From: an uncultured virus (IMG/VR IMGVR_UViG_3300035703_000051)
Taxonomy: Duplodnaviria; Heunggongvirae; Uroviricota; Caudoviricetes
Length of the DNA: 64,000 nt
Direction: 5' to 3' (one strand)
Virus record (IMG/VR): IMGVR_UViG_3300035703_000051
Part shown: positions 3,486-15,320 of the stretch, piece by piece
Layout of the letters: each line of letters starts with the position of its first letter
Numbering within the stretch: the first letter of the stretch is position 1
Made by a program: the position numbers and the translations under genes
The notes under the pieces: model-generated
Databases searched by the model: none
What the model was told of the DNA's origin: nothing
What the model saw: the letters and a program-made list of their open reading frames with translations, nothing else

Positions 3486-4295
3486 ATGAACTTTGTTTGC
3501 GCTTACGCTCAAACCTTGGAGCAGCCAAGGGAAGTATTCGTATCTGAAAACTCAACTGCAATTCGTTGCATCATTGGGTTGCCTGCTGTTGGCAACAAAG
3601 CAGCAACTCATATCGAACTCAACCTGTACGGCAAAAACGCAGAACGTTTTGCTAAAGCACCTAAAGGTGCACACATCTATTTACATGGCGCAACACTGCG
3701 TCATGATCTAGATACCCGTACGCATTCATTGCACGGTGGGAATGTTGCCCCAGCAAGTGATCAATTTCCTCAGTTCAATGATGTGATCTTGACTGGGCGT
3801 TGCGTTAAGGATCTAGATCTCAATGACCCACGGGTGTTCCGTACCACGGAATCTGGTTTGATGATCTGCAATCAAACCATCTCGGTCACAACGGGTAAGA
3901 ACCAGGCTGACCTGTTCAACTTCTTTGCAATGAATAATGCAACAGATCGGTTGAACAACGCTGAGCTGCTTGCCAACATGACACGCAAAGGCGTTGGTAT
4001 TACCATTCGTGGTCGCTTGGTTACCGACACATGGACTGACGCCAATGGTGAACGCAAGTCACAGACAAAGATCCAGCTCAATAAAATGACGTTGGCTCCC
4101 AAGGCAACGGTCAATGAAGCCAAGCCCATCCAACCTCAGACAACACTGAGTGCTGATCGAGACGTTCAACCTTTGTGGAACAGTGCACCATCTCAAGTTT
4201 CTGCTGATCCTTGGAACGTTGCTTCTGGTGGTGGGCTTCCTGATCTTCCTGGTCAGTATGGCCCTGCACCTGACCTAGACGAAGAACCATTCTGA
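3486..4295 (+). CDS. ssb: Single-stranded DNA-binding protein, apparently two OB folds
   Basis: VILTGRCVKD, KGVGITIRGRLVTDTWTDANGERKS and acidic tail DLDEEPF. Confidence 0.8.
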   Translation: MNFVCAYAQTLEQPREVFVSENSTAIRCIIGLPAVGNKAATHIELNLYGKNAERFAKAPKGAHIYLHGATLRHDLDTRTHSLHGGNVAPASDQFPQFNDVILTGRCVKDLDLNDPRVFRTTESGLMICNQTISVTTGKNQADLFNFFAMNNATDRLNNAELLANMTRKGVGITIRGRLVTDTWTDANGERKSQTKIQLNKMTLAPKATVNEAKPIQPQTTLSADRDVQPLWNSAPSQVSADPWNVASGGGLPDLPGQYGPAPDLDEEPF

Positions 4296-12105: not shown

Positions 12106-12176
12106 TCGAGGCACTTGGAATCGAACCAAGGTTACCAGTACCCAAAACTGGGGTGTTGCCACTATACTATGCCTCG
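12106..12176 (-). tRNA. tRNA-Pro(TGG)
   Basis: Acceptor stem CGAGGCA/TGCCTCG, anticodon arm CCAGT-TTTGGGT-ACTGG, T arm CTTGG-TTCGATT-CCAAG. No encoded CCA. Confidence 0.9.
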
Positions 12177-12536
12177 TAAAACATAATGCTCTATTTGATG
12201 GCAATTAGCGCATAAAACCTCGCATTTGCTTATCTCGTTCATTATGACATCCCAGCAGTTTCTTTGAGCCATTTCAGAAATGTTTCCATCCTTTTCTTTG
12301 TTGGTGTGGTGAAACTGCAATGCACGATAATCGTCATAACCACAACGGTTGCATGTTAACGTTTTTTTAAATTCTGTATACTTCTTTACACGTACTCTCC
12401 TTGCTTTATGTTTTTGTTTTGAATAGCAGGTCACACAAAGGTGTCGATAATAGCTTTTGCCTTTTATTTTTCCTGCCAAGGGAAAATTACTAACTAAATC
12501 CTCTTGTTCACACTCTCGGCAGGTGCGTGTTTTCAA
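12162..12536 (-). CDS. HNH endonuclease, putative homing endonuclease
   Basis: CNRCGYDDYRALQFHH...CEVLCANCHQIEH with an N-terminal CxxC pair. Likely TTG start at 12536; stop codon lies inside the tRNA. Confidence 0.85.
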   Translation of the reverse strand: MKTRTCRECEQEDLVSNFPLAGKIKGKSYYRHLCVTCYSKQKHKARRVRVKKYTEFKKTLTCNRCGYDDYRALQFHHTNKEKDGNISEMAQRNCWDVIMNEISKCEVLCANCHQIEHYVLRGIV

Positions 12537-12583
12537 AAGTATTTCTTTTAAATCCCATTTATTATAAATACTTTTATTTAAAA

Positions 12584-12720
12584 ATAGATGGAGCAAGTGT
12601 GATACACCTCAAGGATGTAACAGTGACTTGCCCTCTATCTCAACCAGGAAAGGTAACCCGCAACCAACGGCGGACCTCAGAACTGGCTGACTGCCCCATC
12701 GGAAAGAGAGGGGGAACGGA
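12584..12720 (-). ncRNA. Candidate structured RNA
   Basis: GC-rich intergenic segment after a TATAAT box, with a long hairpin at 12584-12638. Confidence 0.35.
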
Positions 12721-13902: not shown

Positions 13903-14103
13903 TCACTTACTTTGCTTGTAACGTCTTGCAGCGCGACCAGCTTTTTTTGCACGCTCAGTGTTAGGAATAAACTGTTTGCCTTGCCTGCTACCAGCTCTTT
14001 TCTTTTGATCAGTCTCCTCACGTTCTTCTTTAGACAGTGAGGACCAGGCTTTCTCTGGAAGGTAACGCTTGGTGTATCCTTTTTGAATTGCTTTATCTGT
14101 CAT
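13903..14103 (-). CDS. Small basic protein
   Basis: TKRYLPEKAWSSLSKEEREETDQKKRAGSRQGKQF. Confidence 0.75.
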   Translation of the reverse strand: MTDKAIQKGYTKRYLPEKAWSSLSKEEREETDQKKRAGSRQGKQFIPNTERAKKAGRAARRYKQSK

Positions 14104-14105
14104 GT

Positions 14106-14276
14106 TTATTTTTTAAATTTGACGATCTGTTGCCATAAACCATTTTTAATGGCTTGGTCTATGGAAACACCCTGGGGCAAAACTTGACTAGCCCAAAAAT
14201 TTTCTTCTAATAAAAAATCTCTTGGGTCGTTACCTGGCCCAGATGTATTCATATAACGTCCAGCAATTTGCATCAT
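14106..14276 (-). CDS. 56-aa hypothetical protein (not in ORF track)
   Basis: MMQIAGRYMN...QQIVKFKK; ATGA overlap with the upstream stop codon. Confidence 0.55.
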   Translation of the reverse strand: MMQIAGRYMNTSGPGNDPRDFLLEENFWASQVLPQGVSIDQAIKNGLWQQIVKFKK

Positions 14277-14584
14277 TTATTCTCCTTGTATTTTTTGGCG
14301 GCTGCTTTAGCTTTGCCGCGTTTTTCATATTCATCCTTAGTCATCCACTTCTCCTTGCCCCACTTCTCCAGGGACTTCTGCTTTTCTCCCTTGCCTCCCT
14401 TATATCCGCCACCTGCCTTCTCGTATTCTTGAGCAACAAGCTGGGCCTTTCTAGCCGAAATAATTAGTTAGCCTTACGGCTACGACCATTCTCCTGGTTT
14501 ACCACCACGGCCTTCACGCATAATTTTGTTTTTGATACGCTCACGCAGGTCTGGTTTTGTGTACTTGCTTTTGTCTTCAGCCAT
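14273..14584 (-). CDS. Basic WSARKAQ-motif (DUF5872-like) protein interrupted by an in-frame 24-nt insert; predicted translational bypass
   Basis: 34 codons MAEDKSKY...GKPGEWS, then TAG CCG TAA GGC TAA CTA ATT ATT TCG, then ARKAQLVAQEYEKAGGGYKGG...KENK. GAGG Shine-Dalgarno upstream. Confidence 0.7.
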
Positions 14585-15320
14585 AACTTCCTCGCTCTTT
14601 AAGATAAGTGACTGCGTTTGTCAATACATCTATATTATCACCAAATAAACCTAGGGCTCTATTGCACTCTTTGCACAGCAAACCCCTGAACTCATTGGTT
14701 TTATGGTTGTGGTCCATGGCTAAAGATTGTTTGTCCTTGGGGGGCTCTTGGCAAATTGCGCATAAACCTTCCTGGATCTCAAAAACAATGTCGTATTGCT
14801 CTTTTGTTATCCCTCTGCGCTCATATTTTTTGTGATTGTTATGTAATAAATCTTGCCCTTGTTTTTTAACTTTTTGATAATGCTCTTTGTTATTGTTTAC
14901 CCATTTGTCCCAACTTAGTTTATTGCAGGCTTTGCATGAAGAATGAAGATACAATTTGCCGTCTTGCTTTCTTCTTCTAAAACAATCCCAATCTAAATAA
15001 TGAGCACATTTAGAACATTGCTTTTGACCGTCTGCTCCGTACAATAAGCTAAATCGACGGTTAACCAAAGATCTGCAATCTTTGCATACGCTGTCTCTTT
15101 TTATATTGCCAGCAGAGTTATACCCTTTGTTCCCAAAATTTTCATACGGCTTTCGGGTTCCGCATTCCCGGCAAAGTTTTTGCATTGGTTGGTTTGTGCT
15201 TTTCTTACGATAGCACAAAATCACCGGCCCGGGCTTGCCGCCCTTAGATCCAGCCATTACACGATCTTTGATACGCTCGCGTAACTCCGGCTTGGAATAT
15301 TTACTATCGTCTTGTGCCAT
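14577..15320 (-). CDS. Endonuclease VII-like homing endonuclease, in frame with a duplicate 31-codon 5' end of the downstream gene
   Basis: QEGLCAICQ...LAMDHNHKTNEFRGLLCKECNRALG plus N-terminal CxxC modules. Own start probably ATG15185. Confidence 0.85.
   Translation of the reverse strand: MAQDDSKYSKPELRERIKDRVMAGSKGGKPGPVILCYRKKSTNQPMQKLCRECGTRKPYENFGNKGYNSAGNIKRDSVCKDCRSLVNRRFSLLYGADGQKQCSKCAHYLDWDCFRRRKQDGKLYLHSSCKACNKLSWDKWVNNNKEHYQKVKKQGQDLLHNNHKKYERRGITKEQYDIVFEIQEGLCAICQEPPKDKQSLAMDHNHKTNEFRGLLCKECNRALGLFGDNIDVLTNAVTYLKERGSYG

Follow-up and report, generated by a model that had tools for sequence, protein, structure and literature searches.

A homing-type endonuclease VII cassette in a small conserved phage gene, and probable translational bypassing of the short coding gap that it carries

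The element described here lies in the IMG/VR virus record IMGVR_UViG_3300035703_000051, a stretch of 64,000 nucleotides (nt) from an uncultured virus that is referred to, at its full length, as the window. The window is phage DNA, with PHROG matches to a DNA polymerase, a primase, a large terminase, a major head protein and virion proteins, and its nearest cultured relative at the DNA level is the Synechococcus phage S-EIVl, to which the match is weak. On the minus strand, a cassette made of a nuclease gene, a replacement gene end and a short coding gap sits in a small target gene, the remainder of which follows (Table 1). The open reading frame (ORF) that contains the nuclease (15320-14577) has 247 codons, the orphaned original 5' end of the target gene, a leader and the nuclease being read as one frame, and the ATG of the following 34-codon ORF overlaps it by 8 nt. 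An initial annotation of this DNA had noticed that the nuclease ORF and the next gene open with related starts, and alignment bears this out, as the orphan and the replacement 5' end are identical at 20/31 residues (65%; BLASTP E = 3e-15). Homology is lost at G31, three codons before the gap of the second copy, and the gap is, as also annotated, a 24-nt insert; it has three in-frame stops and is flanked by TCG codons. The match to phrog_17747 is divided between the two pieces of the target gene (positions 16-44 for the first piece, positions 45-63, from Ala, for the second), and because these positions run consecutively across them, the pieces abut with a single Ser. The 5' edge of the cassette was placed by a global alignment of the window to L004, a relative with an empty site, of which the upstream part alone was used.

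Table 1. Features of the interrupted locus, with positions in the window
Feature	Position	Strand	Basis or remark
Orphaned original 5' end of target gene, 31 codons	15228..15320	-	Matches 5' ends of empty alleles
Nuclease-gene leader, 5' edge of cassette	15186..15227	-	Homology to empty-site relative L004 ends here
Endonuclease VII-family homing-type nuclease, 202 codons + stop	14577..15185	-	PF02945, phrog_2633
Cassette-borne replacement 5' end of target gene, 34 codons	14483..14584	-	Intact in 82/82 unique alleles
Proposed take-off codon TCG, last codon of 34-codon piece	14485-14483	-	TAG next
24-nt coding gap	14459..14482	-	TAG, TAA, TAA in frame
UAG stop opening the gap	14482-14480	-	
Gap hairpin UAGCC-GUAA-GGCUA	14482-14469	-	
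AU-rich spacer of gap	14468-14459	-	
Proposed landing codon TCG (Ser)	14456..14458	-	Matched to take-off codon
Rest of target gene, 60 codons + stop, DUF5872-like small basic protein	14273..14455	-	phrog_17747 positions 45-63
Stop codon of target gene	14275-14273	-	

The nuclease is of the endonuclease VII type, in agreement with the initial annotation. Residues 167-241 of the 247-codon ORF match PF02945 (Endonuclease_7) with E = 2.5e-22 and 79 bits, for a cut-off of 23.6 bits, and phrog_2633 (endonuclease VII) matches the nuclease with E = 4.3e-33. The DHNH...RGLLC..CN motif and the Cys pairs are invariant across 9 nuclease relatives, down to 50% identity, as is the His-Me finger motif D158-H159-N160-H161 ... 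N175, and the 202-codon nuclease ORF is uninterrupted in 61 alleles. Its own ATG, judged from the relatives, is the equivalent of window position 15185; in the relatives the nuclease starts there, ~40 nt past the orphan. A recognisable orphan is present in 22 relatives, in 21 of which it ends with GQ-stop (18 ...PGQ and 3 ...AGQ), and it is disrupted in one, L192; some contigs, such as L051, are without any orphan. Only in the window are orphan and nuclease fused in frame: a one-base difference from the relatives removes the stop codon of the orphan, and the leader is read as a linker. The beginning of the nuclease ORF is thus a 5' copy of the target gene in the window, as first annotated, but this fusion is specific to the window and is not a property of its relatives. 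Neither the nuclease nor the target protein matches an NCBIfam family, and no cultured carrier was found among 50,697 phage records, in which the best nuclease match stays below 37% identity.

A search with the downstream half of the target gene in viral contigs yielded both interrupted and empty loci; the best 80 of 573 confirmed relatives were kept. The interruption is found at the same place in 9 of these 80, and the other 71 are uninterrupted. A nuclease gene lies directly upstream in all nine interrupted loci, whereas none of the 71 empty loci has one (at least 900 nt of upstream DNA were available in 70 of the 71). Intact relatives of the target gene are proteins of 93-96 residues. Full-length empty alleles score 21.4 to 22 bits against DUF5872 (Pfam PF19197), and because these scores stay below the gathering cut-off of 27.5, the target gene is named DUF5872-like only. 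All 71 empty loci read uninterrupted through ...G-Q-W-S-A-R-K..., and the Ser at the joint is encoded by TCT (22 loci), AGT (15), TCA (12), TCG (9), AGC (8) or TCC (3), with GGG at this position in the two others; the joint Ser codon is free to vary in empty alleles. An empty allele is also present in a cultured phage, S-EIVl (KJ410740, 15196-15429), where the match spans two annotated hypothetical proteins because the annotation starts at an internal Met. In the empty allele of L055, one extra base right before the Q-W-S site, ~25 nt upstream of the match start at 4001, puts the 5' part out of frame; a sequencing error may explain it, or a scar left where cleavage presumably takes place. In L049, L057, L060 and similar contigs, the target gene runs on into what is, in the window, an ORF of its own with 66 codons (13903-14103, minus strand), so that the family exists both fused and split.

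A search that starts from the nuclease takes no account of the gap. Made in viral contigs, it collected 47 loci, and all 38 close relatives with downstream DNA carry the gap; the rest comprise one locus that ends inside the nuclease gene and eight distant homologues. In metagenome contigs it collected 68 loci, with the gap in 57 of the 57 that have usable downstream DNA (11 do not). These counts, together with the 9/9 versus 0/71 above, show that nuclease and insert co-occur; co-occurrence was a check that the initial annotation had named. The pair L041 (with the cassette) and L042 (empty) catches the difference between the two states. Over roughly 560 aligned upstream bases the two differ at 4 positions, downstream there are no mismatches beyond about 75 nt, and the cassette of L041 extends from just behind ...CAG TG in the recipient gene to the second TCG. 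The other differences between the two loci cluster within ~15 nt upstream and ~75 nt downstream of the cassette edges, as would those of a co-conversion tract. When cassettes and flanks were compared in 1,830 pairs from 61 alleles, some cassettes proved to be 99.7 to 99.9% identical over 703 nt beside flanks that agree at no more than 75 to 79%, and in other pairs flanks with 95 to 97% identity adjoin cassettes with 78 to 81%; such decoupling is the mark left by an element that moves between diverged alleles. Invasion of the site by a cassette, as originally suggested, agrees with both the L041/L042 pair and the decoupled identities, and the proposed division into an orphaned original and a diverged replacement 5' end agrees with the alignment and with the relatives. 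We are therefore highly confident that the cassette is a mobile element.

The association between nuclease and gap is one-directional, because the gap outlasts the nuclease. Among the 36 unique viral alleles with 1.3 kilobases (kb) of upstream DNA, the nuclease is complete in 27, reduced to a C-terminal remnant in 7 and cleanly absent in 2, and the gap and both open halves are kept in all 36, including the 9 with nuclease remnant or loss. One decayed gap-bearing copy was observed, in L207 (1200-1500): its 34-codon part contains indels, its hairpin is mutated, and both the landing Ser codon and an upstream nuclease are missing, while the downstream half is still open.

The merged sets comprise 82 unique alleles with 29 different gap variants. 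The gap is 20 nt long in 3 alleles, 21 in 28, 23 in 1, 24 in 29, 25 in 11, 26 in 8, 29 in 1 and 30 in 1, so that the downstream half lies in another frame than the upstream half in 24 of the 82. Despite these differing lengths, all 82 keep an open 34-codon part and, downstream, at least 47 open codons. In every allele UCG precedes the gap and UAG comes next, and UAG is also found in 38/38 and 57/57 loci of the nuclease-anchored sets; the codon that follows the gap is TCG in 78 alleles, TCT in 3 and TCA in 1. A hairpin, TAGCC-tetraloop-GGCTA, starts at the TAG in 80/82 alleles, with the loops GTAA (48), GTGA (24), GGGA (3), GAAA (2), GCAA, GAGA and TTAG (1 each); all but TTAG fit GNRA, and variation in the hairpin is limited to the N and R positions of GNRA. 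The spacer between hairpin and landing codon is 86% A+T, and the dinucleotide TC occurs in none of the 29 gap variants. A shuffled spacer is free of TC with a mean probability of 0.67, and the avoidance is only suggestive because the gap variants are related. Across 43 viral alleles, diversity in the hairpin is 0.061, compared with 0.415 at third positions of the cassette-borne 34 codons and 0.538 at those of the downstream codons; part of this set came from a pattern that fixes the first four hairpin bases, and the sets collected by way of the nuclease agree with it. In the window, the hairpin motif is confined to the gap. The pattern TAGCCGTRAGGCTAA matches at least 120 stretches in viral contigs; among the matches listed, 32 are this element, and the other 88, considered as possible instances of the same hairpin in other genes, are ordinary coding sequence or post-gene hairpins, such as the one behind a capsid gene in L401, none of them convincing.

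A single event leading from the first UCG to the next UCN fits every gap variant, whatever its frame, and the gap shows features of the gene 60 type; we therefore propose bypassing by peptidyl-tRNA-Ser. Of the readings compared, only re-pairing of the peptidyl-tRNA accounts for the whole set of observations. Judged from these comparisons of alleles, the element is probably a homing-endonuclease cassette in a small conserved phage gene, and the interrupted gene would be expressed by translational bypassing of the gap. The gene is most likely still expressed, since under this proposal ribosomes would hop over the short coding gap. At the DNA level, the nuclease would cut cassette-free alleles near the conserved G-Q-W-S-A-R-K site, repair would copy the cassette in, leaving the recipient's own 5' end behind as the orphan, and the insert together with a Q-to-E change would spoil the cleavage site in carriers. 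We infer both the cleavage of empty alleles at the G-Q-W-S site and the protection of carriers by the gap from the location of the cassette edge, 4 nt ahead of the gap, as well as from the precedent of T4. On the mRNA, the ribosome would arrive with UCG (Ser34) in its P site and UAG in its A site, where the hairpin UAGCC-GNRA-GGCUA, which begins at the UAG, would hinder termination. The peptidyl-tRNA-Ser would then release the mRNA, which would slide through until the tRNA re-pairs at the first UCN past the AU-rich, UC-free spacer, and decoding would resume at the Ala codon to give one protein with a single Ser at the joint. A single tRNA-Ser reading UCG, UCU and UCA is assumed.

Two other translational routes were considered and rejected. 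Stop-codon readthrough or another genetic code is ruled out by the three in-frame stops and by the gaps that shift the frame in 24/82 alleles. An internal start for the downstream half could use the ATG in GAATGG ahead of the codon of take-off; this ATG is in frame only for gaps of 20, 23, 26 and 29 nt and meets a stop in the window and in the 26-nt class; no conserved start exists.

A target gene that is simply broken, giving the 34-residue peptide alone, with the downstream part made separately or not at all, would also be compatible with several of these observations, and we regard this as unlikely. The two halves could look intact because the cassette keeps entering fresh alleles; homing has been recent in some pairs, the identities of cassette and flank are decoupled, and the copy in L207 has decayed. 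The AlphaFold model of the intact protein, with a predicted local distance difference test (pLDDT) score of 60, is of low confidence and thus does not show that the halves must be joined. However, both halves are open in 82/82 alleles, among them the 9 whose nuclease is decayed or deleted and which are unable to home. In the cassette-borne 34 codons, the ratio of non-synonymous to synonymous divergence (dN/dS) is 0.15 at a dS of ~1.06, and this 5' part is under purifying selection. No conserved start precedes the downstream half, and the 25-nt class has stops directly before the landing codon in the frame of that half. Breakage alone would not keep the matched UCG/UCN codons, the UAG and the hairpin either.

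Alternatively, the gap might be removed from the RNA by excision and ligation or by editing, followed by ordinary translation. Removal of the stretch from UCG to UCG would restore the frame for every gap length, and the conserved hairpin could serve as a processing signal. However, Rfam gave no match, and we know of no intron class this small in bacteria or phages; the stop right after the take-off codon, the UC-free spacer and the restriction of landing codons to UCN would not be needed for excision. A contig of 696 nt from an RNA library (run X2; 72 differences, no gaps) is colinear with the window through the coding gap, retaining the gap without a joint, which is weak evidence against excision. 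Only two RNA runs contained a small share of the words (0.10 and 0.08); because the RNA data are contigs, they are uninformative on transcript level or rare spliced forms. We consider removal from the RNA very unlikely.

The hairpin raises a third alternative, in which the insert acts as an intrinsic transcription terminator or attenuator inside the gene. A consensus scan does flag 14482-14469 and the tail behind it as terminator-like, but two such sites were found in the region for 2.1 in shuffles, the stem is just 5 bp and the tail is A-rich rather than U-rich in most variants, for example in the 21-, 25- and 26-nt classes. As a terminator would also leave the matched codons and the intact downstream half unexplained, this role is extremely improbable.

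Several observations weigh against bypassing itself. (i) For some alleles the take-off region was fixed by the retrieval pattern, and the diversity of the downstream half could come in part from repeated homing into fresh alleles and not from selection on interrupted ones. (ii) The hairpin is absent in 2/82 alleles. (iii) The stem is invariant, and compensatory changes are found in 0/9 predicted pairs; there is no covariation signal because the stem never varies, and an outer GUCG/CGGC helix linking the take-off and landing sites, also proposed by RNAalifold, is equally invariant. (iv) The stability of the hairpin stands out only modestly: the folding z-score is -2.0 for 33 nt, with 9/200 shuffles as good, and -0.84 for 80 nt. 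(v) There is no Shine-Dalgarno-like triplet 5 to 7 nt before the landing codon, unlike in T4; the sole AGG lies inside the hairpin, 9 to 19 nt upstream of the landing codon. (vi) The nascent-peptide residues specific to the cassette (Glu for Gln at -2, no Asp at -15) are only suggestive, the pattern-based share of the data forcing Glu at -2. (vii) The library of run X2 may contain DNA. A side observation concerns L133 (1290-1345; = L106), in which AU-rich sequence replaces the G+C hairpin: pairing between a leftover TAGCT and the GGCTA of its landing site can enclose the entire gap, and the landing site of the window also reads GGCTA.

Other nuclease genes and ORFs were noted around the element. 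Second endonuclease VII-like ORFs (33 to 44% identity) lie 1.1-1.9 kb downstream of the target gene in L047, L053 and L064. The window itself has a free-standing HNH endonuclease ORF (12162-12596, minus strand; phrog_2255, E = 6.5e-28) ~1.7 kb downstream of the cassette, which overlaps at its 3' end a tRNA-Pro(UGG) gene (12106-12176). A 56-codon ORF (14106-14276, minus strand) separates the target gene from the next gene; L004 is without this ORF, and there the next gene adjoins directly.

In the preprint of Manning & Atkins (10.1101/2022.08.31.505936), gene 60 is described as the sole case of bypassing for more than three decades, with all its known relatives in the same topoisomerase gene. 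According to that text, MobA-type bypass elements occur exclusively in the topoisomerase II large-subunit gene (Topo2L) of Myoviridae, their nucleases are MobA, GIY-YIG or VSR, and the features defined for gene 60 and its relatives are an A-site UAG, a hairpin, no cognate codon between the matched codons and an AU-rich approach to the landing site. A full-text literature search, which does not cover most subscription journals, revealed no bypass element described from cyanophages or from this DUF5872-like gene. If the proposal is true, the present element would be the first combination of a nuclease and a ribosome hop outside the phage T4 topoisomerase gene, and such combinations would be a recurring evolutionary solution. 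It would interest both the recoding and the mobile-element fields, with another nuclease family, target and host group and a much shorter gap than that of gene 60. The 29 natural gap variants of 20 to 30 nt would provide a ready mutational series on which signals are needed, and the question of origin would become testable, as the expectations for the UAGCC/GGCUA hairpin differ between common descent and convergence. We can only tentatively suggest a wider reading, which is possible and somewhat short of probable: bypassing would be a portable solution of unrelated homing nucleases, active without a mini-Shine-Dalgarno sequence on cyanobacterial-type ribosomes. In this joint reading the signal would be minimal (UCG-UAG, a 14-nt hairpin with T4's stem, a 6 to 16-nt AU-rich, UC-free spacer and UCN), and a module related to gene 60 would have moved between nuclease families and phage lineages. 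For annotation, these data are a warning that short split ORFs beside nuclease genes may be one gene.

Three kinds of known system can be compared with this element. Free-standing phage homing genes of the endonuclease VII/HNH kind share its nuclease fold family and its presence/absence polymorphism between related phages; in contrast to the cassette, they lie between genes and bring neither a replacement gene end nor a coding gap. The distant homologues among L120-L128 are examples: the six inspected of these eight (L120, L121, L123, L126, L127 and L128; L124 and L125 were left out) are free-standing endonuclease VII genes elsewhere, without the gap. The mitochondrial byp elements of Magnusiomyces capitatus (Lang et al. 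2014 and Nosek et al. 2015, as cited in 10.1101/2022.08.31.505936) are likewise short, mobile, untranslated inserts in protein genes; their take-off and landing codons match, and the codon next to take-off is poorly decodable. However, they are mitochondrial, number dozens per genome and have no link to a nuclease gene, and their A-site codon is an unassigned sense codon, whereas here it is UAG.

The closest parallel is the T4 MobA/gene 60 element, as presented in the same source (and by Bonocora et al. 2011, as cited there). Both arrangements place a nuclease gene, an 8-nt out-of-frame overlap and then an element-encoded 5' end of the downstream gene in this order, and in both that 5' end is a diverged repeat of sequence from the target itself. 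In both, the take-off and landing codons match, UAG follows take-off, the gap has a tetraloop hairpin and is AU-rich in its 3' part, and the nuclease has been lost in some lineages with the gap kept. The differences are equally clear. In that description, T4-type elements target Topo2L at the Toprim site through MobA, GIY-YIG or VSR nucleases in Myoviridae of gamma-proteobacteria, whereas the target here is a ~94-residue DUF5872-like gene, the nuclease is a PF02945 endonuclease VII-type enzyme (the T4 MobA piece matches PF01844/HNH only, not PF02945) and the carriers are cyanophage-like freshwater phages. The gap is 20 to 30 nt long here and mostly about 50 there; the codon pair is Ser UCG instead of Gly or Asp; the hairpin starts at the stop and, apart from 1 bp in the 25/26-nt class, excludes the take-off codon; and no mini-Shine-Dalgarno sequence precedes the landing codon by 5 to 7 nt. 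Finally, the gene's own 5' end is duplicated and orphaned here, and not split off so as to give two functional subunits.

That this is an instance independent of T4, as the initial annotation suggested, stands as far as the nuclease family and the target gene differ; the independence itself is uncertain, because the hairpin stem and the bases right before the landing codon equal those of gene 60. When GGA-TAGCC-TTCG-GGCTA...ATTATT-GGA of T4 gene 60 is set against TCG-TAGCC-GTAA-GGCTA...ATTATT-TCG of the window, the stem and the last six bases of the gap are identical. We estimate the chance identity of a UAG-initiated 5-bp stem closed by two G-C pairs at roughly 1 in 4 to 1 in 16, and the shared UAGCC/GGCUA stem may be either homologous or convergent. 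Taken together, the element in the window departs from the MobA family in target gene and in nuclease type, two features that define the family, yet from its organization it appears to work like a member of that family.

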